Shown: positions 4,054 to 34,640, counted from the first letter of the stretch. The stretch is DNA of 64,000 bases from Deltaproteobacteria bacterium (GCA_029262455.1 JAJCZJ010000020.1:325078-389077); one strand, 5' to 3'. Program-made: numbers and translations. The notes: generated by a model from the letters alone, not told the origin.

Positions 4054-4393
4054 TCCCACCCCCGTCGTGCGTCTAGTCTAACAGATAGTACTCGTTCTCT
4101 ACTGAGCAATTCCCGCGCCACCCCGAAGACCCGCTTAGCACTAAAGCTCACTTCGACCGGAGTGGGCAAACGTCTTCTCACTCGATCCGCCGACGAGCAG
4201 ATTGCTACCCGGTGCCATCCGCCCGGCATCGCCCAGGCCGAGCTGAGTGAGGGCGGCACGAAACTTGACCTCCCTCCAAGCCATGACTCGACACAGCTTC
4301 GGTTCGATCGAAAAGGCTTACGAAACGATCGGCCCCCGAGAGCTCAATCAGGGAAGGGAACGCTCGGCGAGCGGCCCAAGGAGAGGAGCACCA

Positions 4394-5590: not shown

Positions 5591-5692
5591 TTCGGGCTCC
5601 GTCCACACTCCGAAGCACTGTCTTGCAGCCGTCGAGCCCATTCCGTGGCCAGCAAGTTCAGTACACATCGCGCACCTATCGGGAGGAAGACA

Positions 5693-11741: not shown

Positions 11742-13133
11742 TCACAGTGCAGGCGACGGTCTCGAGACCCACCACAACCGCGCGCTCAACAAGCACGCTG
11801 CCGTGGCGAGACCAGCGAGTAAGCCATACCACACACCCGTAGCACCAATCGGGGTAAAAAGCCCGAGCCAAGCGGAGACGGGAAACCCGACCAACCAGTA
11901 GCTGACGAATGTGATGTACATCGGCAAGCGAACATCTTTCAGCCCACGCAGCGCTTGGTTGGCGGAAACCTGTGTCGCGTCAAAGAGGGCGAAGGTCGCC
12001 GCAATCGGCAGGAACGACGATGCAAGACCGAGCACTGTCGCGTTCAACGGGTCAGCCGCATCGAGGTAGAGTCCCGCGATCCCGGTGGGGACCGTCATCG
12101 CCGGCACCGCTACGAACATGATCGCTCCGATGCAAGACAGGATGGAAACCACCGCTGCGCGGCGCACCCCCGCTGCGTCGCGCGCACCCGCCATGAGTCC
12201 GACGCGCACCCCGCCGGCCATCGACAAGCCCAACGGCATCATGAACGCAAGCGCCGCGACATTGAGCGCAACTTGGTACGCAGCCATTTCGTCGATGCCG
12301 ATGCGTCCCATCAGGAAGACAGCCGCGTTGAACAACATCGCCTCGAAAAACATGGTGAAGCCGATGGGCCAGCTCAGCTGCACCAACTCATCGAGGCTCA
12401 CCCAACAGGGCTTGGAAAAGTTCGAGAAGAGCGCAAAGCGCCGGCTCGCAGATTCCAGATTGATGTAAGCGACGAGAGAGAAGAAGCCAGCGGCGTGCGA
12501 GATCGAGGACGCGATCCCAGCTCCCACGAGTTCGAGCCGGGGAAATCCCCAATTGCCGTAGATGAGCAGCCAATTGAGGAGCGCGTTGAGCAACGTCGAA
12601 ATGACGATAATGACAAGCGGTGCGCGCGTCCGTTCGATCGCAGCAAGAAAATTGCGCAGCGCCACGACTCCGAGAGCAAACGGCAATCCCGCGGCGAGCG
12701 CTAACACGTAGGGCTCGGCCATCGCAGCCGGGAGAGCCGGCTGACCGAGAATCTGGGCGATCTCCTCCGTAAAGAGAAAGGTGATCGACAGGATCGGGAT
12801 ACAGACGCCAATCGTCCACAACCCCATGCGCACCGCTCGTCGCACGCTCGCGGTATCATCTGGATCGGCACCGAGCGCCTGGGAGACCATCGGCGACACG
12901 GCCATCGCCGGACCGAAGCCGAAAAGAAACATCGCGTAAAAAATGACTTGGCCAAGTGACGCGCTCGCCAACGCCTCCGGCCCGAGCCGACCGATCATCA
13001 AGACGTCCACGGTGTTGATGGAGAACTGGACGAGCTGCGTCAGTCCCATCGGGATGCCGATGGCCAGGAGCGCAAGAAATTCGCGCCGCCAGGGGCCCGC
13101 TGGAGTGTTCGATCGGTTCGCTGAAGTCGCCAT
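11742..13133 (-). CDS. MATE family efflux transporter
   Basis: 463 aa, about 12 hydrophobic helices. N-terminus REFLALLAIGIPMGLTQLVQFSINTVDVLMIGRLGPEALAS is typical of NorM/DinF-type MATE. Confidence 0.85.
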   Translation of the reverse strand: MATSANRSNTPAGPWRREFLALLAIGIPMGLTQLVQFSINTVDVLMIGRLGPEALASASLGQVIFYAMFLFGFGPAMAVSPMVSQALGADPDDTASVRRAVRMGLWTIGVCIPILSITFLFTEEIAQILGQPALPAAMAEPYVLALAAGLPFALGVVALRNFLAAIERTRAPLVIIVISTLLNALLNWLLIYGNWGFPRLELVGAGIASSISHAAGFFSLVAYINLESASRRFALFSNFSKPCWVSLDELVQLSWPIGFTMFFEAMLFNAAVFLMGRIGIDEMAAYQVALNVAALAFMMPLGLSMAGGVRVGLMAGARDAAGVRRAAVVSILSCIGAIMFVAVPAMTVPTGIAGLYLDAADPLNATVLGLASSFLPIAATFALFDATQVSANQALRGLKDVRLPMYITFVSYWLVGFPVSAWLGLFTPIGATGVWYGLLAGLATAACLLSARLWWVSRPSPAL

Positions 13134-16732: not shown

Positions 16733-18856
16733 ATGGTTTCAGAAAACCAAGTCGGTTCGAGTTTGCGCTGGTGGGCCATCGTCGGGCTTGGGATCGCAGG
16801 ATATCTCGCTGCCTTCGCCCTATGGCAGATCTCGGACACCGAGCTGCCGGCAACCGGACCACCGGGACGCGGCGCTGATCTGAAGTCGTACTTCCTTCCC
16901 GGTATGGCTTTCATTCGCCAGTCATTGCTCGACGGCGAGCTGCCGCTTTGGAATCCATACGCACTGGCCGGCTCTCCGTTCATCGCGCTACACCACCCGG
17001 GCGCTCTTTACCCACTGCTCGTCGCCTTCGCTCCCCTGCCCCCACACCTAGCCATCGCTGCGCACGGACTCCTCCACCTCGCACTCGCGGGCATTTTCAC
17101 CGCCGTCTACGCGAGAAAAGTCGGCCTGCAGGCCGGAGCCTGTCTCGCTGCAGGCCTTGCGTACATGGGTTCCGGGCCCTTGATTACGGCCCTGTTCAAC
17201 ACTGCCTACCTGTCGACCTTCGTCTGGCTTCCGGCGATCCTTTGGGCCATCGAGCACCTTTGCGACAGGCCAGGTCGACTTGCAGCGGTGCGAATGGCTG
17301 GCGCGATCGCCCTTTGCTTTCTCGCCGGGCACGTACAGGCCTTTGTCTATTCAGTCCAATTCGCTGCGCTCTATGGAGCCGCCCGGTTGTTCGCCTCACA
17401 ACCGAGACAACGCTGGCTAGCCACCATCGGGTGGAGCTTTGCAGCGGGCCTACTAGCTGTTGGATTAATCGCCATACAGCTACTCCCAACGGCAAGCCAT
17501 GCAGCTTCGGCGGCTCGCAGTTTGGAGGGCCTTGTATACAATCTAGCCCGCTGGTCTCAGCTGCGATGGACGGCACTGCCGGAAATTCTCGCCGGCCAAG
17601 GCCACTACCCGTTCAGTCTGCCGTTCCTTTTCGCCCCTTTGGTCGTCGCAGCGCTGTTGTCGAGCCAGCGCATGGTCGCCGCAACGCTCTTGGCGATCTT
17701 CCTCCTTTGCTTCGACTTCATGACCGGGGGGCATGCCTTTGGTTCCAGATTCTACTACGCCCTCCCCGCTGGAAATCTGTTTCGCTTCCCCACGCGCATG
17801 GACTTTGCCTATCACTTCGCAGCCGCCACACTTATCGGATTCGGGGCGAATTTCTTTATCCTGCAGGCCAAGCGACGGAGTTCCCGATTCGCGCTCATCG
17901 CTAGCATCCTGATTCCTTCGCTCCTGGCGATCGACCTATTCTCGCGCAATCGTCTCCCGTATCACTACGACCTCTGGAGCGACCCGTTCTCAACCAGTGC
18001 CGTAGACAACACGGTCGATCTAGCCGCGACCGCCGGCTACGATCGGATGTTCATTCAGAACCACGCCTGGGTGACCGTACCGCTCAAGTTCGGGACGCTG
18101 CGCGGCGTTTTCGCTCTGCCGGATTACGATCCGATGCCACCTGGCCTCTACACTGAGTTCTTCGAAGTGCCAGGTGCGCTGTGGCACGGCCGACTCGAAG
18201 TCGTCGATCCGTGGCCAGGAAAGCAGAAAAACCGAAACCTGCAGCCGGCCAGCAGGCTCGACCTACTCAGTGTTCGTTACTACGTTGACGCACGGACAAA
18301 CGCTGTCAGAACCGGCCCCAACGGCATGGCTACCGTGGCCAAAGCCCACCGCATTCGCAGAGGCCCCCCCGCGGCTTACAAGCGCGAATCGGCCCTGCCT
18401 CGGACCTACATCGTCAAGGACGTTATCGCAGCGACGTCGGACGATGAAGCCTTGGCGCGAGTCAAAGCGCTCGACTTTGACCCCAGGCAAACCGCTGTTG
18501 TCATCGGCACCGACGCATTTCCATCAACACCGCTGAGCCCTGACGACAGCGCCCGGATCACCGCCTTCAGGCGCAACGATGTCTCGATCGAAGCCTCTTG
18601 CACTTCCGATTGCCTGCTCGTACTCACAGACCTCTACGACCCAGACTGGTCCGTGCACGTCGACGGAGCACCGCGCGAACTCCTGCGCGCCAACTACCTG
18701 GTGCGCGGAGTCCGACTCGAGGCGGGAACCCACAGGGTCGACTTCCACTACCGCGCGCCCGCGTTCTGGACCGGCGCGGCGACCACCTTGATCACCATGA
18801 CCATCGCCATATACCTGGCCGCAAGCGGACGACGGAGGCCCTCTCGTGAGCCCTGA
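16733..18856 (+). CDS. YfhO-like polytopic membrane glycosyltransferase (GT-C-like), paralog 1
   Basis: LKSYFLPGMAFIRQSLLDGELPLWNPYALAGSPF, many TM helices. C-terminal DLYDPDWSVHVDGAPRELLRANYLVRGVRLEAGTHRVDFHYRAP is typical of the YfhO C-terminal domain. Confidence 0.7.
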   Translation: MVSENQVGSSLRWWAIVGLGIAGYLAAFALWQISDTELPATGPPGRGADLKSYFLPGMAFIRQSLLDGELPLWNPYALAGSPFIALHHPGALYPLLVAFAPLPPHLAIAAHGLLHLALAGIFTAVYARKVGLQAGACLAAGLAYMGSGPLITALFNTAYLSTFVWLPAILWAIEHLCDRPGRLAAVRMAGAIALCFLAGHVQAFVYSVQFAALYGAARLFASQPRQRWLATIGWSFAAGLLAVGLIAIQLLPTASHAASAARSLEGLVYNLARWSQLRWTALPEILAGQGHYPFSLPFLFAPLVVAALLSSQRMVAATLLAIFLLCFDFMTGGHAFGSRFYYALPAGNLFRFPTRMDFAYHFAAATLIGFGANFFILQAKRRSSRFALIASILIPSLLAIDLFSRNRLPYHYDLWSDPFSTSAVDNTVDLAATAGYDRMFIQNHAWVTVPLKFGTLRGVFALPDYDPMPPGLYTEFFEVPGALWHGRLEVVDPWPGKQKNRNLQPASRLDLLSVRYYVDARTNAVRTGPNGMATVAKAHRIRRGPPAAYKRESALPRTYIVKDVIAATSDDEALARVKALDFDPRQTAVVIGTDAFPSTPLSPDDSARITAFRRNDVSIEASCTSDCLLVLTDLYDPDWSVHVDGAPRELLRANYLVRGVRLEAGTHRVDFHYRAPAFWTGAATTLITMTIAIYLAASGRRRPSREP

Positions 18857-21008
18857 GAACCCCGACGCGAGTTCAGATGCCGTTCGGAACAACCGCCACG
18901 CAACCTTGCGATGGTGGTTGGTCGTCGGGCTCGGGATCGGGGGATTCCTCGCTGCGTTTATCGTCTTCCGCCTACTCGACCAGAGCCTTCCGCTCACCGG
19001 CCCGCCGGCGAACGGCGCCGACCTAAAGTCCTATTTCATTCCGGCGATGGCGTTCATGCGACAGGCCTTCTTCGACGGCGAGCTGCCCCTGTGGAACCCG
19101 TACCAACTCGCCGGGTCTCCGTTCATTGCGCTCCATGGACCAGGCGCGCTCTACCCGTTGCTCTTCATCTTCACTCCACTACCGCCCCACGTCGCGCTGA
19201 TCGCACACGCCCTGCTCCACTACGTTCTCGCTGGACTGTTCAGCGCGCTGTACGCGCGAAAGATCGGTCTACCAAGTGCCGCATGTCTCGTGGCTGGACT
19301 CGCGTACGTGGGCTCGCCGCCACTCGTCGACGCCGCATTCAACACGGGATACCTGTCGACCTTCGTCTGGCTTCCGGCGATCCTGCTGGCAGTCGAGAGC
19401 ATCTGCGACACGCCCGGGCGTCGGACGGCGGTTCTCCTAGCCGGAGTCCTGGCGCTCTGCTTTTTGGCCGGACACCCCCAGGCGTTCGTTTATTCCGTCT
19501 TCATCGCCGCACCCTACGGCGCCCTGCGCCTGTTGACCTCCCAACCTTCTGCAAAGTGGGTGTCGATTCTCGTCTGGAGTACGACAGCAGGCTTGCTGGC
19601 GGCTGGTCTGATGGCGATACAGATCCTACCGACCGCCAGCCACGCCAACACCGCCGCCAGAAACCTCGACGGTCTCAACTATCATCTCGCACGATGGTCG
19701 GCCCTGCGATGGCATCATCTACCTAGCCTTCTCACCGGCCAAGACGGCCCCCCGCTCGGTCTACCATTTCTCTTCGCGCCCCTAACCATCGCTGCGCTCT
19801 TCTCGCGCCAACGCGTACTCGCGCTGACTCTGCTGTCGATCTTTCTATTGTCCTTCGACTACATGACCGGCGTCAGCGCACTCGGGTCAAAACTCTACTA
19901 TGCCTTGCCTGCGGGGAATCTGTTTCGTCTCCCCCAACGAATGGCATTTGCGTACCACGCGCTTGCCGCTGCATTAATGGCGCTCGGCGTGAGCGCCGTA
20001 ATCTCCGGAGCCAAACGCTGGGGATCTACCCTCGCGATCATCGCGGCAATCACGATCCCGGCGATCCTCGCACTCGATCTCTTCGTCCGTAATCCACTTC
20101 GTTTTCGCTACGACCTCTGGCGCGCCCCCTGGTCGGTCCCCGGAGCCGCAGAAACCTCACCCCTATTGAACGCAGCCGGCTTCGACCGACTTTTCATCCA
20201 GAATCGGGCCAAAGTAACAATACCGCGAAAATTTGGAATGTTGCATCGAGCGTTCATCCTGCCGGACTACGATCCGTTGCTCCCCGGCATCTACCGCCCG
20301 TTCTTTCAGATCCCGCCGAAAGGGCTGTGGCACGGTACCCTCGACATTGTCGATCCGTGGCGCGGCAGACCGCTAAATTCTGTGCGCAAGCCGATTCTGC
20401 AACCCCCAACACGCCTCGATTTACTCAGCGTTCGCTACTACGTGGATGCTCGCCACGGAGCCGCTAGCGACCCGAAAAAACTAGGCCCGGCCTCCCAACT
20501 CGCGGACATCCACGTCGGGCAACACGCTGTCTACAAACGTGAGACGGCAGTGCCCCGCACGTACATCGTGAAGGACATCGTCGGTGTGAATTCGGAGGCA
20601 GATGCCTTGGCGAGAGTGCACGCCCTCGACTTCGACCCTGCTCGGACGGCCATTGTCGTCGGTCCCCCTGCACAATCCTCAGAAACTCCGGCGGCGAACG
20701 AAGGGGCGCGCATCACGTCTTTTCGCCGCAACGACGTTCGCATCGAAGCATCCTGCAATTCGGATTGCCTGCTCGTCCTGACCGACCTGTACGACCCCGA
20801 TTGGTCAGTTCAGGTCGACGGGCAACCTACAACGTTGCTGCGCACCAACTACTTGGTTCGTGGCGTCCGGCTCAACCCTGGAACCCACACCGTAGATTTC
20901 CACTATCGCGCCCCCGCCTTCTGGACCGGTGCTGCGATCACGCTTGCGGCGCTGCTGGTGTCAGGCTACCTCGCCCTGTCCGGAAGAGAACATAAGCGAG
21001 TCGGCTAG
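18846..21008 (+). CDS. YfhO-like polytopic membrane glycosyltransferase, paralog 2
   Basis: GTG start overlaps the upstream stop by 11 nt. Long blocks identical to paralog 1, for example a 34-nt identical DNA stretch at about 17209-17242 and about 19351-19384. Confidence 0.7.
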   Translation: MSPENPDASSDAVRNNRHATLRWWLVVGLGIGGFLAAFIVFRLLDQSLPLTGPPANGADLKSYFIPAMAFMRQAFFDGELPLWNPYQLAGSPFIALHGPGALYPLLFIFTPLPPHVALIAHALLHYVLAGLFSALYARKIGLPSAACLVAGLAYVGSPPLVDAAFNTGYLSTFVWLPAILLAVESICDTPGRRTAVLLAGVLALCFLAGHPQAFVYSVFIAAPYGALRLLTSQPSAKWVSILVWSTTAGLLAAGLMAIQILPTASHANTAARNLDGLNYHLARWSALRWHHLPSLLTGQDGPPLGLPFLFAPLTIAALFSRQRVLALTLLSIFLLSFDYMTGVSALGSKLYYALPAGNLFRLPQRMAFAYHALAAALMALGVSAVISGAKRWGSTLAIIAAITIPAILALDLFVRNPLRFRYDLWRAPWSVPGAAETSPLLNAAGFDRLFIQNRAKVTIPRKFGMLHRAFILPDYDPLLPGIYRPFFQIPPKGLWHGTLDIVDPWRGRPLNSVRKPILQPPTRLDLLSVRYYVDARHGAASDPKKLGPASQLADIHVGQHAVYKRETAVPRTYIVKDIVGVNSEADALARVHALDFDPARTAIVVGPPAQSSETPAANEGARITSFRRNDVRIEASCNSDCLLVLTDLYDPDWSVQVDGQPTTLLRTNYLVRGVRLNPGTHTVDFHYRAPAFWTGAAITLAALLVSGYLALSGREHKRVG

Positions 21009-21114
21009 GCGAAACGACCTTCCGCCGTCCAGCGCAGGATCGGCTCTTGCGAGCCGAACAATCGCCGAGGCCCCCGACGCACGTAACCCCTGGAAGCGTG
21101 AAATCATCCAGACT

Positions 21115-21939
21115 ATGTTATCTCGGATGAGCCAAGGAGCGACATTCCCAACTCCCCCCCTCTCTGTGGTAATACCGGCCTTCGAGGAGTCCAGTCGCAT
21201 CGGCCCTCCACTCGCAAAAATTTGCCAGTATATTGCACAGAACCACCCGGGCACTGAGATCATCATCGTCGACGACGGCAGTCGCGACAGTACCTCGGAA
21301 ACGGTTGAGAAGCTCGCCCCGGATCTGCCATGCCCGGTCACCCTGTTGCGCTATGAGAAAAATCGCGGCAAGGGCTACGCGCTGCGCGTAGGTTTCGCGC
21401 ACAGCAGCGGGCAGCGCGTCCTGTTTACCGATTGCGATCTTTCGACGCCGATCGAGGAACTCGATCGGCTTCTCCCCGCGATCGAGGATGGCGCCGATGT
21501 GGTGATCGGCTCGCGGAAGATGACCGGTGCCGACATCGTCGTTCATCAAAAATGGTACCGCGAGCGGCTCGGCAAAGTCTTTACGTTTCTCGTCAACATC
21601 GCAATCGCCAACGTCAGCGACGCAACGTGCGGTTTCAAGCTCTTCGACGGTGACGTTGGCCGGAAACTCTTCGCACTCGGTCAAATCGACGACTGGAGTT
21701 TCGACGCCGAAATCCTCTTCCTAGCCAGCCGACAGAACCATCGCATCGTCGAGATTCCCGTAACCTGGCGCGATGCCGAGGGCACAAAAGTCCGCCTTGG
21801 CCGCGACGCGCTCGCGGCCCTGACTGGGCTGATGCGCATTCGATGGCTGGCGCTGCGCGGCGTCTATCGGGAGGCTGCTTCTCCGAGCCTGGACTCCTCC
21901 GTCGAAGTCAAGATGCTGCCTGACCGGCTCATATCGTGA
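21115..21939 (+). CDS. GT2 polyprenol-phosphate glycosyltransferase (DPM1/GtrB/CsbB/ALG5-like)
   Basis: ORF 20929..21939 trimmed to ATG 21115. LSVVIPAFEE, IIIVDDGSRDST, NRGKGYAL, FTDCDLSTP, DAEILFLA. Confidence 0.8.
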   Translation: MLSRMSQGATFPTPPLSVVIPAFEESSRIGPPLAKICQYIAQNHPGTEIIIVDDGSRDSTSETVEKLAPDLPCPVTLLRYEKNRGKGYALRVGFAHSSGQRVLFTDCDLSTPIEELDRLLPAIEDGADVVIGSRKMTGADIVVHQKWYRERLGKVFTFLVNIAIANVSDATCGFKLFDGDVGRKLFALGQIDDWSFDAEILFLASRQNHRIVEIPVTWRDAEGTKVRLGRDALAALTGLMRIRWLALRGVYREAASPSLDSSVEVKMLPDRLIS

Positions 21940-24116
21940 GCACAGGTAGTTCCCCGCAACTCGTCAAGCAGACAAACGTCGATTCCTGGCAGTGGTGGAC
22001 ACTCGTAGGGCTGGGGCTCGGCGCCTTCCTCGCGGTATTCATAGCACTTCGGCTCACGGACCCCACATTGCCTCCAAGCGCGCCGCCGGCCCGCGGTTCC
22101 GACCTCAAGTCCTACTTCCTCCCCTCGATGGTGTTCATTCACCAATCACTGATGGATCTCGAGCTGCCACTCTGGAACCCGTTCCAGCTCGCCGGCTCTC
22201 CGTTCATCGCCAGCCATCACCCCGGCGCCCTCTATCCCCTGCTCGTCGTGTTCGCACCGCTACCTCCACATCTGGCGCTCGCCGCCCACGCACTCCTCCA
22301 CTACGCACTCGCCGGTATATTCACTGCCCTATACGCACGAAAAATCGGCGCCCAGGCCGGTGCTTGCCTCGCTGCCGGAGTTGCCTACATGGGTTGCGCA
22401 CCAATGGTGAACGCCGCCTTCAACACCGCCTATCTGTCGACCTTCATCTGGCTGCCGGCGATTCTGCTGGCCATCGAGCACATGTTTCAGAAACCCGGCC
22501 GCCGGGCAGCCGTGATATTGGCCGCCACACTTTCCCTCAGCTTTCTGGCCGCGCATGCGCAGGCATTCGTTTACTCGGTCGAAGTTGGCGCACTCTACGG
22601 AATCGCACGACTGGCCGCGTCGCAGCCAAGAGCGCAATGGCCACGCATCGCGGGTTGGAGTATCGCTGCCGGATTGATCGCCGCGGGGCTGGTCGCGATC
22701 CAGTTGCTTCCCGCAGTCGAACACGCATCCGCCGGCGGGCGCAATCTCGAAGGCGTCAACTACGGTATCGCTCGTTGGCCTGGTCTCTATTGGCAGCAGG
22801 TCCCTCGAATCCTCTCCGGACTCGACCATCGAGGCACAGGTGTCCCCTTCCTTTTCGTCCCCTTAGCCATCGCGGCAATTTTTTCCCGCTGGCGGACACT
22901 TGCCCTCACGTTCCTCGTAATCTTCTTTCTCTGCATCGATTTCATGGCCGGATCCACCGGATTCGGGTCAAAGTTGTACTACGCTCTTCCCGCCGGAAAT
23001 TTGTTTCGCTTTTCAACCCGAATGGGATTCGCATATCAGCTCGTCGCCGCTGTCATCATGGGCCTCGGCACCAGTGCGGTCATCACGCGATCACAACGAT
23101 GGGGCCCAAAAGCAGCAGGCGCCGTCGGCATCGCACTTCCTGCCCTCCTCGCTCTCGATCTCTTCTGGCGCAATCCCCTGCCCTACCGATTCGACCTGTG
23201 GAGCGACCCGTGGGACGTGAGCGCCGTCAACGCCACCGCCGATCTAGCGAAAACCACCGAATACGACAGACTCTTCATTCAGAATCACGCGTGGGTGACC
23301 GTTCCAACGAAAGTCGGGATGCTGCACAGTGCCTTCGTCGTCCCGGACTATGACCCGCTACTGCCGGGGGCTTACAAGCACATGTTCGGGTCTGGTTCGA
23401 AAGTTGTCTGGCAAGGGCGCCTCGATATGGTCGATCCATGGCCTGGCGAGAGAAAGAAAAACCACAAGCCCCCCGTCCTCCAACCACCCACGCGACTCGA
23501 TCTGCTCAGTGTTCGGTACTACGTCGACGCCCGCACAATCGCGAGGCTAGGTCCTACCAAGCTGGGATCCGTTTTAGACGCCAAACAGATCCGCGAGGGA
23601 CCACCGCCGGTCTACGAACGCACGACTGCGTTGCCGCGTACCTACATCGTCAAGAATGTGATTGCCGTCGCGTCCGAGGACGATGCTCTGAAGCACGTGC
23701 ACGAGCTCGCCTTCGACCCGACCGAAACGGCTATCGTCGTCGGGAACACCACCCTAGACACGCAGCCGCTGACTGCAGACGATCAGGCTCACATCACGTC
23801 GTTCCACCGCAACGACGTATCCATCGAAGCATCCTGCACTTCGGAATGTTTGCTCGTCCTAACCGATCTCTTCGATCCCGATTGGACTGTGCATGTAAAC
23901 GACCAGCCGCACGAAATATTGCGCACGAACTATCTGGTACGTGGCGTCCGCTTGGAAGCGGGTACCCATCGCGTCGATTTCCACTACCGCGCGCGAGAGT
24001 TCTGGAAAGGCGCAATCATCACTCTCGCAGCACTCCTGGTTTCGGCGTACCTGCTGGCAACGGGCGACCCGACTCTCCACCGCCCTGCGACCAACACCGC
24101 TCGCAGTACCGGCTGA
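21936..24116 (+). CDS. YfhO-like polytopic membrane glycosyltransferase, paralog 3
   Basis: GTGA start/stop overlap with the GT2 gene. Same conserved N- and C-terminal blocks as paralogs 1 and 2. Confidence 0.7.
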   Translation: MSTGSSPQLVKQTNVDSWQWWTLVGLGLGAFLAVFIALRLTDPTLPPSAPPARGSDLKSYFLPSMVFIHQSLMDLELPLWNPFQLAGSPFIASHHPGALYPLLVVFAPLPPHLALAAHALLHYALAGIFTALYARKIGAQAGACLAAGVAYMGCAPMVNAAFNTAYLSTFIWLPAILLAIEHMFQKPGRRAAVILAATLSLSFLAAHAQAFVYSVEVGALYGIARLAASQPRAQWPRIAGWSIAAGLIAAGLVAIQLLPAVEHASAGGRNLEGVNYGIARWPGLYWQQVPRILSGLDHRGTGVPFLFVPLAIAAIFSRWRTLALTFLVIFFLCIDFMAGSTGFGSKLYYALPAGNLFRFSTRMGFAYQLVAAVIMGLGTSAVITRSQRWGPKAAGAVGIALPALLALDLFWRNPLPYRFDLWSDPWDVSAVNATADLAKTTEYDRLFIQNHAWVTVPTKVGMLHSAFVVPDYDPLLPGAYKHMFGSGSKVVWQGRLDMVDPWPGERKKNHKPPVLQPPTRLDLLSVRYYVDARTIARLGPTKLGSVLDAKQIREGPPPVYERTTALPRTYIVKNVIAVASEDDALKHVHELAFDPTETAIVVGNTTLDTQPLTADDQAHITSFHRNDVSIEASCTSECLLVLTDLFDPDWTVHVNDQPHEILRTNYLVRGVRLEAGTHRVDFHYRAREFWKGAIITLAALLVSAYLLATGDPTLHRPATNTARSTG

Positions 24117-24157: not shown

Positions 24158-24916
24158 TCACAGGATCTCCCAGCCTTCACAATAGAGATCCTGCCAATTT
24201 CGAGGGCCTGCCGGTTTGAACCAAGTGCGTGGGGCGACAGTCGGCCCACCGCCAAGCCAAGCCGCCCACCAGCTATAGGTACTGTTCGCAATGACATGGG
24301 CGTGGCACAGCGCCATCGCGCACATGTCGACATGTGCGTCGTTCCCCGAGACGACGACCTGGCTGTCAAAGTGCCGACGACACCAGTCAGGGTCATCAGA
24401 GAAGACAATCGGGCTGTGACCTTCGAACCTTGCCAACGCTTGCCTGTACCACGACAAAGGCAGATTGGAGTGGATCCGGCTCTTATCCGTGTAATCGCCC
24501 CGACGCACGTGAACCGACACACGTGAAGTGCGAACGCCGGCAAGCACCTCCTCTGCCCGTTCCCGCACTTCGTCGGTGAATGTGAAGTTGCTTCGCACAA
24601 TCTCTTCGCAATGCGCGAAATACTTGGGACTCTGGTAGTAACCCAAGAGATCGAAGTCGCGCCGCTCGCTGAGGCCGAACACCTCCCGCGAGAACGAGAA
24701 GCGAGGCTCGCGAAAGCTTTCTACGGGCGGCGGGACAGATTCGTCGAGAACCGAACCGAGGATGAAACCCCGAGCAAGATCGGACGCCGAGATCGGCGCG
24801 CACGGATCGTGGCCGGTAATGATCGATGCACCCAAGACGGCAGCATATTGAAACATCTGGTTTCCCAAACGCCCCTGAATCCCAATAGAGTTATGTCCGA
24901 GTCTCGCCACGTTCAA
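24158..24916 (-). CDS. GT11 alpha-1,2-fucosyltransferase-like
   Basis: GRLGNQMFQYA, VSVHVRRGDY, IANSTYSWWAAWLG. Confidence 0.8.
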   Translation of the reverse strand: MNVARLGHNSIGIQGRLGNQMFQYAAVLGASIITGHDPCAPISASDLARGFILGSVLDESVPPPVESFREPRFSFSREVFGLSERRDFDLLGYYQSPKYFAHCEEIVRSNFTFTDEVRERAEEVLAGVRTSRVSVHVRRGDYTDKSRIHSNLPLSWYRQALARFEGHSPIVFSDDPDWCRRHFDSQVVVSGNDAHVDMCAMALCHAHVIANSTYSWWAAWLGGGPTVAPRTWFKPAGPRNWQDLYCEGWEIL

Positions 24917-24940: not shown

Positions 24941-27472
24941 TCAAAGTCCGATCACGTGCGTAATGGCGGGAATGGGCTTCGCCAAGGCCGGCAGGCGGAT
25001 CCCAATGTGGACCGTCGCCAACTCGCCTGTCGTTCCGGGAGCGAAACGCGGCTGCACCTCGACACACTTGCCGTTTCGAATCGGACGCGGCGCCGACGCC
25101 GGCTTCTTGCCGTCGAGGAGGAACTTGACGCCGGCCTCCAACATCGCCTGGCCGCACTTCTTCTTCGAACAACACACCGCAACAAATCCCAAGCGCATCT
25201 GCGGCATCGAGAACGTCAGCCAGCCTGCCTGCTGCGAAGCGCGTGTCACCAGCCCCGCGCACGCTGCGGGGTGCCGGCACTCGGGCATGCTGCGTTCGTT
25301 GTCGGGAATGTAGCGCCCGCCCTCCTCCGCCTTCCATCGTGTCCAACCCGCGTCCGAAGTTTGCGCAAGAGCCCGGTGCGGATTCTTCTCAGCCATCGCA
25401 TCGAGGCGCGCGAAGTGCTGTTCTCCAAACGTCGGCACTTCGTAGTTGGTACACCGCGGCGGTTCAGAAACCGCACACCACTCCGCCGGGCAAGCCAGCG
25501 GCTTGGGCAGGACCGAGGCCGACGGCTGACGGGGACGCTTCGGCCAGCGCACAGTCGGATAAGGCTCAGCAGAAACTCGACCCAACGCCAGGAGCAACGC
25601 GTCCGAAAGTTTGTACGCCAGCGCGTCGGCAGTCGTCTGAAACAGAAGCGGACCGGGATGCCAATTGCGGAACACGACGCCCAACGACTGGCGGCGCCGT
25701 TCAGACACGCCCGCTGCCTCCCCCTCCCGCGTCGTCTCGTGAAGCGTGTCACCAACCACACCCCACTCCTTGCCGGGGTAGCCAACGCTCTTGATGCCAC
25801 GCTCCATACAGAGCACATCCGCGCCAAACGGACCGTAGACATCAAGCAACACCTGGTCCTCGGCCGGCAGACGCGAGCAGTCATGCGTATAAAGAATCTG
25901 CGGCACCGGGCTGCGCTCCATCAGCAGCGACCAGCGATAGAATAGCTCGTGGTAGAGCTGGAGATCTTCCGCGGAGCTGCCGGCCTCGAAATAGGTCCAC
26001 GAGTAGTGCGTCATGTCGACGTCGTCGCCCACCAGCGTGCGCAAACACCAAACCTGGTTATCGAACGAGTCGCCGCAATCCCCACCCTGGCCGGTGTTCC
26101 GCACTTCAAACTCGACGCCGGCGGTATTCCAGACCGGAGCCATCAGGCGTTCGAGCTGGAGCTGGTAAGAATCGTAGTGACAGTTGTCGAAACCCGCGGT
26201 CACCGAGCTTCCGATCGTGCCGATGACGAAGCGGTCTCGCCAAACCAGGGCCCGCGCAAGCTTGTCAGCCAAGAAGTCGATTCCTTGCTGGTAGCGGCGG
26301 TCGTTTGGTTGCAAATACCAAGTCTTACGCAACACATCGGGACCACCGTAATAGTCCTCGAGCATCGAGCGCATCTTCTCCACCTCGGCCCGGATTACGG
26401 CATAGCGGGCGCCCTCTGCGTCGGAATCGCCGGCACCGCCTCCTTGTCGCAGCGAGAGTTTCTCGCGAACTGCCGGAACAGCGATCAGCTCCCGCCAAAA
26501 CGCACGCGCAAAGCGCTCGCCACTGTCGCGATTCAGGTGTGAGCCGTCGCTCGTTGCCAAGTCCGCGACGTCGGGCAAAACGACCGGAACCCCGAGAGCA
26601 TCGCCCAAATGAGGAAGATGGCCGGTCTGGGTTTGCGCGTAGGGAGTGAGAGTCACCACCATGAGAGCACCGCGCGATCTCAGTTCACTCTGGAGTTCTC
26701 GCGCTGCCGGCACCACTCGGTCGTAGTTCCGGTCCTCCCGAGTCCAGCCAACCGCATAACTCGCAGCCGGCTCAACTGCGGGTCGCCACCAACCAGTTCG
26801 CGAAGACCGATAGATGACCCATTGCGAAGCGATCTCATCGCCAAACCAATCCAGCTTCGGCACAATGGTGTGAAGCCAACGCTGCAAGCCCCACCGAGCC
26901 CGGGTCTCGATCCATAGCTTGTGGGCCTGCCACCAAGTCAACTGCATCGCCGCGACCGCACGATCCGACACTCGATCGCCGAAGAAGTGCGGCCCGCCGG
27001 CGACGACCACCACCTTCGGTCGCAGATCATGTCGACGGATCAGCTCCAGGGCAAAACCCAGCCCTTCCGAGTGCCCCATGCCGAGAGAAAAGACTCTTGA
27101 CCCCATCACCTCAGCGGCAGGCACTATACCGTCCTCACGCAGACCGAGCGGCATGCGCGAATTACCGATGAAGAGAACATCGGCCCGGCGCGCGTTTGAA
27201 ACCGAGTCTCCGATGTCGTGAAACAGCGCGACATGACTCAGTTCATCACCAACCGAATACGTGAAGAACGCGTCGTCCCCCGGCACCTCGAACGACGGCA
27301 TCCACTGCATCCGGGCCTGGCGCCCATCGGGCAAGGACAACTTCGGTAAGAGCAATGCCGTCAGCACAAAAGAAGAAAGAAAAAGAAGAACCGCGGATGA
27401 ACGCTGATCAACGCTGATGCGCCGCGGGAAGCCACGGCTGACATCGGACGATCTGCGTTCACCTGCGTTCAT
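24941..27472 (-). CDS. Membrane-anchored protein with two SGNH/GDSL-like domains and a Cys-rich C-terminal domain; probable partner of the adjacent MBOAT
   Basis: ORF 24941..27571 trimmed to ATG 27472 to avoid a 74-nt overlap. TM SSAVLLFLSSFVLTALLLP. Domain 1 has FIGNSR ... DGSHLN, domain 2 has IGTIGSSVTAGFDN ... GQGG. Tail is rich in Cys. Confidence 0.65.
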   Translation of the reverse strand: MNAGERRSSDVSRGFPRRISVDQRSSAVLLFLSSFVLTALLLPKLSLPDGRQARMQWMPSFEVPGDDAFFTYSVGDELSHVALFHDIGDSVSNARRADVLFIGNSRMPLGLREDGIVPAAEVMGSRVFSLGMGHSEGLGFALELIRRHDLRPKVVVVAGGPHFFGDRVSDRAVAAMQLTWWQAHKLWIETRARWGLQRWLHTIVPKLDWFGDEIASQWVIYRSSRTGWWRPAVEPAASYAVGWTREDRNYDRVVPAARELQSELRSRGALMVVTLTPYAQTQTGHLPHLGDALGVPVVLPDVADLATSDGSHLNRDSGERFARAFWRELIAVPAVREKLSLRQGGGAGDSDAEGARYAVIRAEVEKMRSMLEDYYGGPDVLRKTWYLQPNDRRYQQGIDFLADKLARALVWRDRFVIGTIGSSVTAGFDNCHYDSYQLQLERLMAPVWNTAGVEFEVRNTGQGGDCGDSFDNQVWCLRTLVGDDVDMTHYSWTYFEAGSSAEDLQLYHELFYRWSLLMERSPVPQILYTHDCSRLPAEDQVLLDVYGPFGADVLCMERGIKSVGYPGKEWGVVGDTLHETTREGEAAGVSERRRQSLGVVFRNWHPGPLLFQTTADALAYKLSDALLLALGRVSAEPYPTVRWPKRPRQPSASVLPKPLACPAEWCAVSEPPRCTNYEVPTFGEQHFARLDAMAEKNPHRALAQTSDAGWTRWKAEEGGRYIPDNERSMPECRHPAACAGLVTRASQQAGWLTFSMPQMRLGFVAVCCSKKKCGQAMLEAGVKFLLDGKKPASAPRPIRNGKCVEVQPRFAPGTTGELATVHIGIRLPALAKPIPAITHVIGL

Positions 27473-27497
27473 CTGCGGTTCAAATCCCTTGCTCGGC

Positions 27498-28907
27498 TCA
27501 AAACTGGAAGTAAATGAACTGCTGTTCCGTCGTGTACAGCGCAAGGACCGCCGCCAACATGGCACCGGCATAGATCGGCATCTCGAAGCGCTTCATTCCG
27601 AGTCCCGAGCTCCGGATCATTGCGGACCGCAAGTGAAGCGCCACGACCGGAGCGACGAAATACCAACCGAGTACTGTCAGATCGTCTAGGGAGCCAAGCC
27701 CACCACCAACCAACGAGACGATCCCCGCCACTGCATTGCCGACAACTCGCGTGCTCTGCGATAGATCCTCGGCGCGGAACAGGCCCATGCTCAGGATCCA
27801 CGTCACTTGCACGACGAGATACCAGCCCATCGAGGCCAGACGTCCCTGAGGTCCGCGCGAGAAACCCAAGGTCCGCTCGATCGCGAGCGCCAGCCCGTGC
27901 AACGCCCCCCACATCACGAAGGTCCAACTCGCACCATGCCAAAGTCCAGCGATCACCATGACCGCTGTGACGTTCACCAACGTGCGAGCTCGTCCGTGCC
28001 GGTTCCCCCCCAACGGGATGTACAGGTAGTCGCGGAACCAACGCGAGAGCGTGATGTGCCAACGACGCCAGAAATCGCTGAAGGTTGCCGCGATGTAGGG
28101 AGCGTCAAAATTGATCGGCAAGCGAAAGCCAAGCTGATAGGCAAGCCCGCGCGCAATGTCGGTATATCCCGCGAAGTCACAGAACAGCTGGCAGGAGAAA
28201 AAGGCGAGCATCGAGAGAGCCAGCAATCCGCCACCGGTTTCCGACGCGGCGCTCTCCCAATGCGTATCGACGACGCGTCCGAGGTTGTCAGCGACGACGA
28301 CCTTGAGAAACAGGCCGCGAACGATCAGGTAGGCGCCTTCGAAGAAGACTCTACCTCTGAAACCACGGTCGCGTTCCAACTGATAGAGAAAATCCCGCGC
28401 TCGAACGATCGGGCCCGCGACGAGCTGCGGAAAGAAGGCGATATAGCAGGCGAGTCGGACAAAGCTTTTCTCAGCCGGGATGTCGCCGCGGTAAACGTCG
28501 ATCGTGTAGCTCATCGACTGAAACGTATAGAACGAGATCCCAATCGGGAGGACAATCTCCGGATCCACAAACTGCCAAAGGCCCGAGGTCGCAATGTTCT
28601 GCGCCACAAAGCCACCGTACTTGAAGTAGCCGAGCAGCCCCAGATTGAGCAGCAGAGAAAGCGAAAGAATGCCCTTGCGCCGTGCCGTAGCCGACCCTGG
28701 CGCAGCGGCAATCACGCGGGCAGCGAAATAGTCGACACACGTGCTGAAGAGAATGAGGGCGAAGTACTTGGGGACGTGCCAGGAATAAAACGCCCAGCTC
28801 AGCAACAAGAGCCCGAAGACGTACGATCGGTTCGATCGGCGCGTCGCACCGCGCAGCGCCAACGCCAAAAAGAACAGGAACAAGAAAGAGACAGAAAGAA
28901 AGCTCAC
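27498..28907 (-). CDS. MBOAT family O-acyltransferase (AlgI/DltB/PatA-like)
   Basis: 469 aa polytopic protein. FWRRWHITLSRWFRDYLYIPLGGNR with the conserved His. Confidence 0.85.
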   Translation of the reverse strand: MSFLSVSFLFLFFLALALRGATRRSNRSYVFGLLLLSWAFYSWHVPKYFALILFSTCVDYFAARVIAAAPGSATARRKGILSLSLLLNLGLLGYFKYGGFVAQNIATSGLWQFVDPEIVLPIGISFYTFQSMSYTIDVYRGDIPAEKSFVRLACYIAFFPQLVAGPIVRARDFLYQLERDRGFRGRVFFEGAYLIVRGLFLKVVVADNLGRVVDTHWESAASETGGGLLALSMLAFFSCQLFCDFAGYTDIARGLAYQLGFRLPINFDAPYIAATFSDFWRRWHITLSRWFRDYLYIPLGGNRHGRARTLVNVTAVMVIAGLWHGASWTFVMWGALHGLALAIERTLGFSRGPQGRLASMGWYLVVQVTWILSMGLFRAEDLSQSTRVVGNAVAGIVSLVGGGLGSLDDLTVLGWYFVAPVVALHLRSAMIRSSGLGMKRFEMPIYAGAMLAAVLALYTTEQQFIYFQF

Positions 28908-29405: not shown

Positions 29406-30590
29406 ATGCCGAAAGAAGAGATCGAGGTCGAGGTTCGGGTTCGGCTGCGCGGAGGGCATTCCTACGATCTCACCCTATCATCCAACTCCGCTCTTCTGCG
29501 CGACTTGATCACGACGCTCGGCGGGTCGAGAAACTCGGTCCAGCCCCGACTCTTCCAGCTACCCCTCGACGGCGGCCAAACCTCCGCAACATTCGCCAGC
29601 GATCAGATATCAGCGATCGACACCCGTCCGCCACTCGACTGGAACACCATCACAACTGGTACGGAAGAGCGGTCCGCAAAAAGCCTCGGCGATGGTCCGC
29701 CTCTCGTCCTACGCGGCGCCCGCAACATTACACGCCAGCCATCCTACGAGGCAGCAGAGCGACGAGCGCGGCGGCTGATGGAACCGTTCGTGGCGCATCG
29801 ACAAGCCCGCCGTGCCGCACTGAAGAGCACTTGCGACGAGCTCGGCGGAAACACCTTCGTCGTCTCCCCCTTCAACCAAGGCTTCGTCCCGCTACTGCGC
29901 AACTGGGCCGCATCCTGTGATCGTTCCGGCATCGACTGCCGCGCCAGGACGGTACTGTTTCCGACCGACAACGGCGCCGACACTGCAGCACGCGAGCTCG
30001 GATTCGCAACCCTCTTCGACGGCGTCTCGTTTGACGGTGCCCCGCGCGACGCTATCAAAGTCTACGGGGACGCCCACTTTGCCGATTGTGTCTTCGCCAA
30101 GCTCGGCGCAGCAATCGACATGCTCGCTCTCGGCTACGACATCCTACTCCAGGATATGGATCTCGTCTGGTTCAAAGACCCGCTCCCCGGACTCAAAACT
30201 CGAGCGATGGCCGACGATCTGGACTTACAGTTCATGCGCGACATGAATCCGCGCTTCCAGCCGCTGTACTACAACTCCGGCTTCGTATTTATGCGCAACA
30301 ACGAATTCACCCGCCAAACCTGGAACACCATCTTCGACGCCTTTGCGGCGGTCGTGTTCTACCGCTCCGATCAAACCGTCGTGAACCAGGTCGTCGACTG
30401 CTACAAAGAGCGAGGATTGCGAGCCGCCCGTCTTCCAGATCGCTACGTAGATGGACAACTGCTGATCCGGGCCCAAACAAAACGCCGGCCTCTACCGCCA
30501 GATTCGATCGTGGCTCACGTCAACTGGACCGGAAACCTTGCCGAGAAGATCGCTCGGCTCAAAGCACTCGAACTGTGGTTCATCGACTGA
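29406..30590 (+). CDS. Unassigned N-terminal ~75-aa domain fused to a GT77/PF03407-like nucleotide-diphospho-sugar transferase
   Basis: ORF 29367..30590, ATG 29406. ILLQDMDLVWFKDPLPGL (DxD) and PLYYNSGFVFMRN are typical of Nucleotid_trans/GT77. N-terminus is described in the findings. Confidence 0.65.
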   Translation: MPKEEIEVEVRVRLRGGHSYDLTLSSNSALLRDLITTLGGSRNSVQPRLFQLPLDGGQTSATFASDQISAIDTRPPLDWNTITTGTEERSAKSLGDGPPLVLRGARNITRQPSYEAAERRARRLMEPFVAHRQARRAALKSTCDELGGNTFVVSPFNQGFVPLLRNWAASCDRSGIDCRARTVLFPTDNGADTAARELGFATLFDGVSFDGAPRDAIKVYGDAHFADCVFAKLGAAIDMLALGYDILLQDMDLVWFKDPLPGLKTRAMADDLDLQFMRDMNPRFQPLYYNSGFVFMRNNEFTRQTWNTIFDAFAAVVFYRSDQTVVNQVVDCYKERGLRAARLPDRYVDGQLLIRAQTKRRPLPPDSIVAHVNWTGNLAEKIARLKALELWFID

Positions 30591-30673
30591 TCGATGCAAA
30601 TCACTTGCCGTGTCACAAGTTTTCCCCTTTTAAGCTTGACAGGAAGTCAGCGAACGTCGAGACTGCCTCCCGG

Positions 30674-31942
30674 ATGCCGACATTTGTTGGCGACACCTTA
30701 CCGGAGGCGCTTCGAGCCTTGGACTGCTCAAAATCCATCGAAACTCGTGTCCTGCCGCGCGCAGTGGCCTTCGGTCGCTTGCTTCTCGCTATCGCGGCGG
30801 CACTTGCCGTGGTGACAGCTCCGCATAGGGCGCCGGCAGCCCAGATCAAGTTCACGGGATTTGCCCAAATCAACGGCGCCCCGAGCGGACCGTTCGCAGC
30901 ATTCACAATGAATGAGGTCGTCGATATGACGATCACGATCGACGAGACTACGGCCGATTCGAATGGCGCCGGCGGCGCCGGATCATACAGCGATCCGACC
31001 TCGACCGCATTGTTCGAGGGACAGACCTCCGTGCAGATGGTCACTTTCACCGGCTTCGGCTTCGAACTCCTCGATTCGACGCGACTCGACCCGGCCAACG
31101 GCCTCGTCTCATCGAGCCCGAGCGCGGCGTACGTCGAGGACTGGGACCTGACCAACCTGTCGCCGATTTCGAACGTCGACGACCTTCCGACCATCATTGC
31201 CGAGTTGCCCAATGTGAACATTGGAACCGTCAGCGCCAACTTTTCGATACAACAACTGCCCGCCGGCCCGACCACGCTCTTCCTCGGGCTCAAGCCAACC
31301 GTCACGGTCACCGACTTTTGCGGCAACGGCATCGTCGAGGCCCCGGAAGCGTGTGACGATCCGGTGTGTTGCAACCCGACCTGCACCGCAATCATAGCGA
31401 ACGGAACTGAATGCCGCGCTTCAGCCGGCGTCTGTGATGTGGCCGAGACCTGCAGCAACGGCGCATGCCCCGTCGACGGCTTCGCCTCGATCGGCACCGT
31501 GTGCAACCCGTCATTGGGCGTCTGTGATCCAGAGGAAGTGTGCAGCGGCTCGAGCGCGGAATGCCCGCCGGACACGCTGACTCAGTTCACCTGTGGCACG
31601 ATCTGCGGCGCCCCGGTAGACGAGTGCGACGTTGCCGACATCTGCGTCTCCGGCAACGTCGATTGCCCACCGATGGGGACAATGTGCACACCGACACCGG
31701 TTCCGACTCCGACGCCCACGCCCGTTCCCGAAAATGGGTCCGGGGACGGGGCTTGCAGCGACGGTCTCGACAACGACAACGACAACCTCATCGACTGCGA
31801 CGACCCTGATTGCCTCGACGTCGAGGCATGCGAAACCGTGCACGCACCGACGCTCTCGCCAGGTGGATTGACGATCACCGTGCTCATCCTCGCCCTCATC
31901 GGCTTGTTGGCGATGGGGCGGGCAGTGCTCCGGAAGAACTGA
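30674..31942 (+). CDS. Secreted Cys-rich protein with disintegrin-like motifs, a PT linker, a DxDxD motif and an IPTL-CTERM-like tail
   Basis: Inner part of ORF 30086..31942. Start is ATG 30674 or GTG 30764 (MAFGRLLLAIAAALAVVTA signal). CGNGIVEAPEACDD, three copies of C-x5-CD-x2-E-x-C-x(4,5)-CP-x-D, TPTPVPTPTPTPVP, DGLDNDNDNLIDCDDPDC, APTLSPGGLTITVLILALIGLLAMGRAVLRKN. Confidence 0.7.
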   Translation: MPTFVGDTLPEALRALDCSKSIETRVLPRAVAFGRLLLAIAAALAVVTAPHRAPAAQIKFTGFAQINGAPSGPFAAFTMNEVVDMTITIDETTADSNGAGGAGSYSDPTSTALFEGQTSVQMVTFTGFGFELLDSTRLDPANGLVSSSPSAAYVEDWDLTNLSPISNVDDLPTIIAELPNVNIGTVSANFSIQQLPAGPTTLFLGLKPTVTVTDFCGNGIVEAPEACDDPVCCNPTCTAIIANGTECRASAGVCDVAETCSNGACPVDGFASIGTVCNPSLGVCDPEEVCSGSSAECPPDTLTQFTCGTICGAPVDECDVADICVSGNVDCPPMGTMCTPTPVPTPTPTPVPENGSGDGACSDGLDNDNDNLIDCDDPDCLDVEACETVHAPTLSPGGLTITVLILALIGLLAMGRAVLRKN

Positions 31943-31962
31943 CGGCCGAGGTGCCTGATCAA

Positions 31963-32469
31963 ATGAGCGACTCCAAAAAGACAAGAAAGCAGCTAATCGA
32001 AGAACTCGAACAACTTCGTGGTCAAGTCGCGCAGCGACAGCAGTCGCAGTCGGACAACAGTGCACCGGCGCTTGCCGGCGACGTTTCACGACGCACCGCG
32101 CTAAAGGTCGCCTGGACCGCGCCGGTCATTTTGGCAATCCCTCTCCAGGCCGATCGCTCTGGCGCCCAACCTCCGGTCGGAACGGTGGCCCCGGGCTGTC
32201 CCACCATGACCCCGACCAACGCGGCCCCTCCGACTAGCTCGCCGACCTTGTTCCCAACGACCGCTGAGCCGACGATTTCGCCGACTCAACCAGTCCCGAC
32301 CACCAGGTTGCCAACGTCCAGTCCCACGAACGACCCGACATTGCGTCCGACCACCAGCCCGACGATCCCTGCCCCGACGGCTATGCCGACGGCGAGGCCG
32401 ACCACCAGCCCGACGATCCCTGCTCCGACGCTTTCCCCGACCCCTGGTTTCCCGACGCTTTCCCCGTAA
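31963..32469 (+). CDS. Pro/Thr-rich small protein with a conserved N-terminal helix and an SRRTALK Tat-like motif; candidate substrate/precursor 1
   Basis: Inner part of ORF 31810..32469, ATG 31963 lies 20 nt after the upstream stop. MSDSKKTRKQLIEELEQLRGQV...DVSRRTALKVAWTAPVILAIPL, then about 90 aa with about 26 Pro, mostly as P-T. Paralog of 45413..45892. Confidence 0.7.
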   Translation: MSDSKKTRKQLIEELEQLRGQVAQRQQSQSDNSAPALAGDVSRRTALKVAWTAPVILAIPLQADRSGAQPPVGTVAPGCPTMTPTNAAPPTSSPTLFPTTAEPTISPTQPVPTTRLPTSSPTNDPTLRPTTSPTIPAPTAMPTARPTTSPTIPAPTLSPTPGFPTLSP

Positions 32470-33976: not shown

Positions 33977-33980
33977 AGCC

Positions 33981-34598: not shown

Positions 34599-34640
34599 TC
34601 GCCGATTTCGTTAAGAACACCCGAAAACGCAGTATTACTC

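Follow-up and report, generated by a model that had tools for sequence, protein, structure and literature searches.

Three tandem YfhO-like GT-C membrane glycosyltransferases encoded with a predicted polyprenyl-phosphate hexose synthase in a Deltaproteobacteria genome

The window analyzed here, a 64,000-nucleotide (nt) stretch of DNA from an assembly labeled Deltaproteobacteria bacterium (GCA_029262455.1 JAJCZJ010000020.1:325078-389077), contains an operon at positions 16733 to 24116 that encodes three paralogous YfhO-like GT-C membrane glycosyltransferases and one family 2 glycosyltransferase (GT2). Together these proteins likely constitute the donor-forming and transferring parts of an extracytoplasmic glycosylation pathway. 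In this pathway the GT2, as a soluble or peripheral enzyme at the cytoplasmic face of the inner membrane, would move a hexose from a nucleotide sugar onto polyprenyl (undecaprenyl) phosphate, the lipid-linked sugar would be flipped to the periplasmic face by an unlinked protein encoded outside the window, and the three GT-C paralogs would transfer the sugar to periplasmic acceptors.

Organization of the Operon

The operon consists of four open reading frames (ORFs) on the + strand, located where the original prediction, made by a model from the sequence alone, had placed them. YfhO-like copy 1 (16733-18856, 707 residues) is followed by copy 2 (18846-21008, 720 residues, GTG start), the GT2 gene (21127-21939, 270 residues), and copy 3 (21936-24116, 726 residues, GTG start). 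The NCBI gene calls on the 410,815-bp contig comprise the same 707-, 720-, and 726-residue proteins and the same 270-residue GT2. The genes had been described as overlapping, which holds for two of the junctions. Copies 1 and 2 share 11 nt, the GTG start of copy 2 being preceded by a GGAGG sequence, and the GT2 and copy 3 genes overlap by 4 nt (GTGA), such that the GTG start of copy 3 overlaps the GT2 stop codon; both of these junctions are translationally coupled. The copy 2 and GT2 genes, however, do not overlap. Their apparent overlap results from taking the longest GT2 ORF (20929-21939, 336 residues) and is an artifact, because the GT2 orthologs in related genomes are 265-275 residues long and the source annotation starts the gene at ATG 21127. 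An alternative ATG at 21115 would give 274 residues, and with either start the gap to copy 2 is about 106-118 nt. Promoter and terminator scans revealed nothing beyond shuffled expectation.

The YfhO-Like Proteins Are GT-C Membrane Glycosyltransferases

All three membrane proteins match the YfhO family, Pfam PF09586, above its gathering threshold of 28.5 bits (73.2, 69.3, and 66.4 bits for copies 1, 2, and 3, respectively). Hydropathy and the secondary structure of an AlphaFold2 (AF2) model reveal a polytopic N-terminal domain, a β-rich soluble domain, and a terminal transmembrane (TM) helix with a basic tail. In copy 1, about 10-12 TM helices are located within residues 1-410, the β-rich soluble domain spans residues 410-676, and a C-terminal TM helix follows. 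The basic tail, together with GT-C precedent, suggests that the C-terminal domain is extracytoplasmic. The proteins have the GT-C membrane fold and, as their PF09586 and structural matches indicate, are the YfhO-family GT-C glycosyltransferases that they had been proposed to be. No solved structure shows detectable sequence similarity to the profile of the YfhO clade. The family itself is very large: with this query, 38,831 cluster representatives at 50% identity are found at E<=1e-3, 15,922 at E<=1e-10, and 754 at E<=1e-30.

The most conserved features of the family are retained in the window proteins. Directly after TM1, where the first loop helix begins, all 15 members of the clade have D49; an acidic residue occupies this position in 91% of 120 homologs, and the G-x-x-P-L-W-N-P...G-x-P loop that follows it is nearly invariant. 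By its position D49 appears to be the conserved acidic residue of the first extracytoplasmic loop found in GT-C enzymes, making it a candidate for a catalytic role. The charged residues D49, H115, R262, R351, R355, R381, D401, R438, R557, D633, R658, and H667 are intact in all three copies; residues of the same class are present at these twelve positions in 88-96% of the 120 homologs, except at R351 (78%). The exception is position 255, where 86% of homologs are acidic. Within the clade, 13 of the 15 proteins carry Glu or Asp there, among them copy 3 (Glu) and the sister protein P0004 (Asp), whereas copies 1 and 2 carry Ser. The identity shared by all three copies is unevenly distributed, reaching 67% in the first extracytoplasmic loop (residues 46-100) and 66% in the last β-sandwich, compared with only 40-45% in residues 261-600. 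Such a distribution would fit copies that share a donor site and have diverged in the parts facing the acceptor.

The GT2 Resembles Polyprenyl-Phosphate Glycosyltransferases

The GT2 is a PF00535 GT-A domain in which the DDGS (residues 49-52) and DCD (102-104) motifs are invariant among 60 homologs. When compared with PDB sequences, its best match is the Pyrococcus dolichyl-phosphate mannose synthase (DPMS; 5mlz) at 1.5e-17, followed by ArnC and GtrB. Indeed, the nine best PDB sequence matches are DPMS, ArnC, GtrB, and a related archaeal GT2 mannosyltransferase, and other GT2 enzymes trail these by four to five orders of magnitude. The AF2 model of the GT2 (predicted local distance difference test score 93.6), which ends in a single helix formed by residues 224-243, gives a similar picture; Foldseek ranks 1-23 are all DPMS, ArnC, or GtrB, with TM-scores of 0.55-0.71 (26% identity). 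The best NCBIfam matches are ArnC, PgfS, and an archaeal dolichyl-phosphate hexose transferase, at 52-57 bits and hence below the cutoffs of 375-529 bits, and the automated JGI name for many of the 50-59% identical orthologs is "dolichyl-phosphate beta-glucosyltransferase." The original description of this protein as GtrB/CsbB/DPM1-like is thus borne out by its closeness to DPMS, ArnC, and GtrB in sequence and predicted structure, but the protein contains no TM helices, so in that respect it is DPM1- or GacI-like rather than GtrB- or CsbB-like. It is best described as a predicted DPM1-like, TM-less polyprenyl-phosphate hexose synthase.

The Triplication Is Old and Lineage-Specific

Pairwise, the three YfhO-like paralogs are 60-62% identical in protein sequence and 62-64% identical in nucleotide sequence in a three-way alignment; copy 2 shares 62% identity with copy 1, and copy 3 shares 60-61% with copies 1 and 2. 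The motif blocks by which the paralogs were originally recognized are found in all three copies, except that copy 3 has ECLLV where DCLLV was given. Synonymous sites are saturated between the copies (synonymous divergence, dS, 1.6-2.0), and the ratio of nonsynonymous to synonymous divergence (dN/dS) is 0.16-0.20. The possibility, raised with the original prediction, that the paralogs are duplicates created during assembly is ruled out by the nucleotide identity, by the saturated dS, and by a longest exact nucleotide match among the copies of 35 nt.

In a neighbor-joining tree (683 columns, 200 bootstraps), the three copies are monophyletic with 100% bootstrap support, and their sister, with 96.5% support, is the single-copy, GT2-linked gene of L001, a metagenomic contig that encodes the nearest relative of the window proteins (42% identity). 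Taken together, synonymous saturation, the dN/dS of 0.16-0.20, and monophyly beside a single-copy sister show that the triplication is old, lineage-specific, and kept under purifying selection. Tandem duplications arose independently in other metagenome-assembled genomes (MAGs), with two copies in L009 and L017 and three in L020.

A Conserved Four-Gene Module in Relatives

Linkage was searched from both ends, using 85 loci on the YfhO side and three long contigs on the GT2 side. In eight independent lineages (L001/2, L003-6, L010, L011, L015, L016, L087, and L088/9), an orthologous GT2 (50-58% identity) is encoded no more than a few kb from a single YfhO-like gene, such that the proposed pairing of GT2 and YfhO-like genes is kept well beyond the window. 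Two class I S-adenosylmethionine-dependent methyltransferases are located between or beside the GT2 and YfhO-like genes in all eight lineages. These enzymes form two orthologous sets, 53-64% identical across lineages, with generic family matches, and neither has an ortholog anywhere in the window. The GT2, methyltransferase 1, methyltransferase 2, and YfhO-like genes therefore make up a conserved four-gene module (for example, L088:8001-12472), which occurs in MAGs with several phylum-level labels. The compact GT2/YfhO pair is kept across Myxococcota-, Binatia-, and probably planctomycete-like genomes; most of these also have the two methyltransferases, and in several a DltB-like MBOAT gene is close by. 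The window cluster is a derived form of this widespread module, lacking the local methyltransferases and carrying a triplicated transferase.

The linkage does not hold everywhere. Genes resembling methyltransferase 2 also adjoin YfhO-like genes of greater divergence, around which no GT2 is encoded (L009, L025, L030, L031, and L071). In L045, an Acidobacteriota MAG, a more distant GT2 (44% identity) abuts a YfhO-like gene, and the GT2 ortholog of L086 has no YfhO neighbor. We found no described function for the conserved module. A literature search combining YfhO with Gram-negative taxa yielded no paper mentioning YfhO, and one on YfhO alone yielded almost exclusively Firmicute work.

The Host Is Probably Diderm

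The nearest named homologs of the YfhO-like proteins, the GT2, and an apolipoprotein N-acyltransferase (Lnt) are from Deltaproteobacteria, Myxococcota, and Candidatus Binatia MAGs, and in addition to Lnt the window encodes a multihaem cytochrome and a cytochrome b. These affinities and genes point to an uncultured diderm host of the Deltaproteobacteria/Binatia type, and teichoic acids are therefore unlikely acceptors. The Firmicute teichoic acid frame in which the operon was originally viewed is thus probably inapplicable here; the comparison is an analogy of mechanism, not of substrate.

Genes Downstream of the Operon

Three genes on the opposite strand follow copy 3. The most distal of these (27498-28907, −) encodes a DltB/AlgI-like MBOAT O-acyltransferase (PF03062) that scores 155 bits against the DltB family TIGR04091, under its 375-bit cutoff. 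Full-length MBOAT orthologs (40-44% identity) are located about 3-7 kb from the YfhO gene in L003, L011, and L015, which brings the co-occurrence of the MBOAT gene with the module to four lineages. No other window gene outside the operon recurs in the YfhO-GT2 loci of relatives, and the MBOAT protein is therefore probably functionally associated with the operon.

The two genes between copy 3 and the MBOAT gene are not shared in this way. A GT11-family (fucosyltransferase-type) glycosyltransferase gene (24158-24916, −; PF01531, 99.7 bits) is convergent with copy 3; it is not conserved in the related loci, and a link to the YfhO operon is not established. Between it and the MBOAT gene is a gene for an 876-residue protein with one N-terminal TM segment (24941-27571, −), which gave no Pfam or NCBIfam match even at E=5 and has no homolog in the 85 related loci. 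By eye, it contains two SGNH-like GNS/GSS motifs (FIGNSR and GTIGSSVTAG). Tentatively, it may be a novel partner of the MBOAT protein.

Donor, Flippase, and Acceptor

Several observations weigh against the proposed pathway. The PF09586 matches of the YfhO-like proteins cover two partial stretches, the N-terminal TM region and the C-terminal region, and against the NCBIfam models for PgfM1 and PgfM2 the proteins score 18-27 bits, over the C-terminal stretch only, compared with cutoffs of 1400-1500; by sequence they are remote homologs of PgfM1 and PgfM2, not orthologs. Copies 1 and 2, with Ser255, may be catalysts that are not equivalent to copy 3. The GT2 has no hydrophobic segment, and hence none of the TM helices present in GtrB, CsbB, and ArnC, and hydrophobic-moment analysis revealed no convincing amphipathic membrane anchor. 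Soluble GT-A enzymes such as GpgS are close behind in its structural ranking (E 2e-11 vs. 7e-16). Close YfhO relatives in L007-9, L012-14, and L017-18 have no GT2 within 10 kb. Finally, no GtrA-like flippase is encoded in the 64 kb, as judged by two hydropathy screens of differing stringency for small hydrophobic ORFs and Pfam scans of the candidates, which extends to the whole window the earlier remark that no flippase gene was recognized nearby. We know of no biochemical data for any member of this YfhO-like subfamily.

The original prediction had stated that this logic normally also needs a GtrA-like flippase. In B. subtilis, Listeria, and L. lactis the locus tag of the flippase gene is far from that of the GT-A/GT-C pair (PMC8035078). 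Because the flippase gene is distant in these best-studied YfhO systems, its absence from the cluster is expected and no anomaly, and by analogy with the B. subtilis and Listeria systems the flippase may be encoded elsewhere in the genome. Neither a Wzx-type flippase nor a GacJ- or DPM3-like small membrane partner for the GT2 was found in the window. The sole MOP-superfamily protein in the window, a MATE protein (11742-13133), was evaluated as a possible MOP-type flippase and dismissed. Its scores place it with NorM-type efflux pumps, its gene is on the strand opposite the operon, and acetolactate-synthase-like and aldehyde-dehydrogenase genes separate the two.

Two observations in relatives touch on the carrier lipid. 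In one relative, a DedA/VTT-domain protein is encoded two genes downstream of the YfhO-like gene (L088:14686-15399). DedA proteins have been linked to recycling of undecaprenyl phosphate, and this neighbor may bear on carrier-lipid turnover. Some YfhO-like homologs also carry extra Pfam domains, PF01943 in P0102 and PF20176 or PF09594 in P0015 and P0087. PF01943 is the Polysacc_synt/Wzx-type flippase family, and its presence would be a hint of MOP-type flipping in part of the YfhO-like family.

Because the MBOAT gene recurs near the module, the favored acceptor of the three transferases would be an envelope glycan that the DltB-like MBOAT protein also O-acylates, with exported Ser/Thr/Pro-rich proteins as the second choice. 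A single GT-A enzyme that serves several GT-C enzymes has precedent, with PgfS serving PgfM1 and PgfM2 and Listeria GttA serving GtlB and GttB (PMC12041528; PMC8035078), and the three copies may accordingly be acceptor- or site-specific transferases fed by one donor, as was originally suggested. The same chemistry could instead be directed at exported Ser/Thr/Pro-rich segments, in a diderm counterpart of Pgf/PgtC2-like O-glycosylation in which the paralogs cover different proteins or sites. Indeed, in streptococci, disordered regions rich in Ser/Thr are glycosylated by the YfhO-domain proteins PgfM1, PgfM2, and PgtC2 (PMC12041528), and the window encodes three exported proline/threonine-rich (P/T-rich) proteins: a repeat-rich protein that appears β-helix-like by eye and includes a (TPTA)n linker as well as a C-terminal domain (5645-7879, +); a disintegrin-like, Cys-rich repeat protein containing a TPTP linker (30086-31942, +); and a small protein whose Tat-like twin-arginine signal (SRRTALKVAW) precedes a Pro/Thr/Ser-rich tail of about 100 residues (31810-32469, +). 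However, the P/T-rich genes are 8-9 kb from the operon, with unrelated genes in between, and a search for P/T-rich ORFs in seven GT2-linked relatives yielded a single match, in L015, and none in the other six. In addition, the gene at 31810 has a more evident partner in the distinct set of predicted cytoplasmic modification enzymes that it adjoins, and the PgfM1 and PgfM2 equivalog scores are far under cutoff. Protein acceptors of this kind are thus unlikely, although they come next after the envelope glycan.

Two further readings change the role of the proteins themselves. The paralogs might be subunits of a hetero-oligomeric GT-C complex, in which copies 1 and 2 are altered or noncatalytic. 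These two copies are translationally coupled through their 11-nt overlap and share Ser255, where most clade members are acidic, and the structural matches of the YfhO-like protein include the heteromeric GT-C enzymes Pmt1-Pmt2 (6p25/6p2r) and EmbA-EmbB (7bvc). Yet every other family-conserved residue, including D49 and the PLWNP loop, is intact in each copy, purifying selection is similar on all copies, and the existence of single-copy relatives shows that the enzyme needs no paralogous partner. We regard a complex of this type as improbable, though a genuine alternative. Least likely of all, and in our view very improbable, is an arrangement in which the GT2 serves as a conventional transferase for glycan assembly, while undecaprenyl-diphosphate-linked oligosaccharides, supplied by nearby cytoplasmic glycosyltransferases, are the substrates of the YfhO-like proteins, which would work in the manner of an oligosaccharyltransferase, ligase, or polymerase. 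PglB, STT3, and AglB do rank among the best structural matches of the YfhO-like protein, many cytoplasmic glycosyltransferases are encoded nearby (GT11, Nucleotid_trans, PF11397, and an O-FucT-like gene), and GT-A enzymes that do not use polyprenyl phosphate are close behind in the GT2 structural ranking. But AftD, ArnT, PMT, and ALG enzymes, which use polyprenyl monophosphates, match the YfhO-like protein equally well or better, and the GT2 is closest to polyprenyl-phosphate glycosyltransferases in both sequence and structure. Moreover, the compact GT2/YfhO module recurs in relatives with the two methyltransferases and without the other glycosyltransferases of the window, and all characterized YfhO-family enzymes use C55-P-monosaccharides (PMC8035078). 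Transfer of a polyprenyl-phosphate-linked hexose by the three GT-C paralogs is consequently the reading that we prefer.

A Neighboring Cluster of Predicted Modification Enzymes

The region 32612-49114 is a dense cluster of predicted modification enzymes. It encodes three PqqD/RRE-domain fusion proteins (32612-33976, 37803-38930, and 40149-41942), an O-FucT-like protein (34641-36644), a prolyl 4-hydroxylase (P4H)-type 2-oxoglutarate/Fe(II) oxygenase (36641-37630), two PF11397 "GlcNAc" glycosyltransferases (38552-40156 and 46893-47900, the latter on the − strand), and a 1,135-residue fusion of sulfotransferase, methyltransferase, GT92-like, and methyltransferase domains (41978-45385), as well as a further sulfotransferase and an NAD epimerase. 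Given its RRE domains, the cluster may act on a peptide or protein, and the combination of P4H, PF11397, and fucosyltransferase proteins recalls, by analogy, the hydroxyproline glycosylation of eukaryotic Skp1. The small P/T-rich protein at 31810-32469, encoded directly upstream, is a plausible candidate substrate of this cluster. The C terminus of the adjacent 30086-31942 protein combines a hydrophobic helix with a basic tail, like a C-terminal sorting signal, and near the start of the window a Gly/Ser/Asn-repeat protein with a weak ice-binding β-roll match is encoded at 4247-5590 (+).

Discussion

The operon follows a recognizable multicomponent transmembrane glycosylation logic. Viewed as a three-component system, its GT-A and GT-C components are encoded together and co-conserved, and no flippase of the GtrA or Wzx type is found within the 64 kb. 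A close mechanistic parallel is offered by the CsbB/YfhO teichoic acid glycosylation systems of B. subtilis and S. aureus as well as L. monocytogenes, in which a Pfam YfhO GT-C gene is likewise located beside a GT2 related to polyprenyl-phosphate-sugar synthases, no flippase is encoded with the pair, and lipid loading is predicted to be cytoplasmic and transfer to occur outside. The window system differs in its diderm host, its shorter proteins (about 710 residues) that match the YfhO profile in parts only, its TM-less GT2, and its three GT-C paralogs per GT2. The Pgf system of S. mutans (PgfS, PgfM1, PgfE, and PgfM2), together with GtrB/PgtC2, shares with the window one GT2 donor synthase and more than one YfhO-domain GT-C protein in a single operon, and the best named NCBIfam matches, weak as they are, include PgfS, PgfM1, and PgfM2. 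However, the window scores are far below the equivalog cutoffs, and the window operon contains neither an epimerase nor adjacent adhesin substrates.

ArnC/ArnT and GtrA/GtrB/GtrC exemplify periplasmic envelope modification in diderms by means of undecaprenyl-phosphate sugars, with GT2 enzymes structurally close to that of the window. Their GT-C proteins, in contrast, belong to other families (ArnT is PMT_2-like and GtrC diverse), ArnC and GtrB have TM helices, and Gtr operons include GtrA. The GacI/GacJ/GacK/GacL system of S. pyogenes and human DPM1 provide precedent for a polyprenyl-phosphate-sugar synthase whose catalytic subunit has no TM anchor of its own, and GacK for a flippase that is not GtrA; in GacI/GacJ the catalytic subunit depends on a separate membrane partner (PMC8035078), for which, as noted, the window offers no counterpart, just as it offers none for a Wzx-type flippase.

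YfhO-like proteins of this kind have been highlighted before. Durairaj et al. (2023, Nature) described "component 27," a large, functionally dark set of bacterial TM proteins with a median length of about 665 residues that are annotated as YfhO yet distinct from Firmicute YfhO and belong to the GT-C superfamily near STT3/PglB (PMC10584680). Compared by description only, this set fits the window proteins, and the window family probably overlaps it.

The logic of the operon is thus not of a new kind; it has been firmly documented for Gram-positive bacteria and for the Arn and Gtr systems and would not surprise a specialist. The operon represents an unstudied branch of that logic, set apart by its remote, diderm YfhO-like clade, by a GT2 devoid of TM helices, by a tandem set of three paralogs, and by the lack of both methyltransferases locally. 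A bolder proposal is that the window holds a derived form of an envelope-modification module whose transferase was triplicated to diversify acceptors, and that one or more copies could O-glycosylate exported P/T-rich proteins. We give this proposal only a small chance of being correct; P/T-rich acceptors, if real, would mean that extracytoplasmic protein glycosylation of the YfhO type had been found in a diderm bacterium for the first time. The triplicated version supplies natural paralogs for mapping the determinants of acceptor specificity, and the locus and its relatives provide a testable handle on the very large YfhO-like family outside the Firmicutes and an entry point to an unstudied, widespread module.

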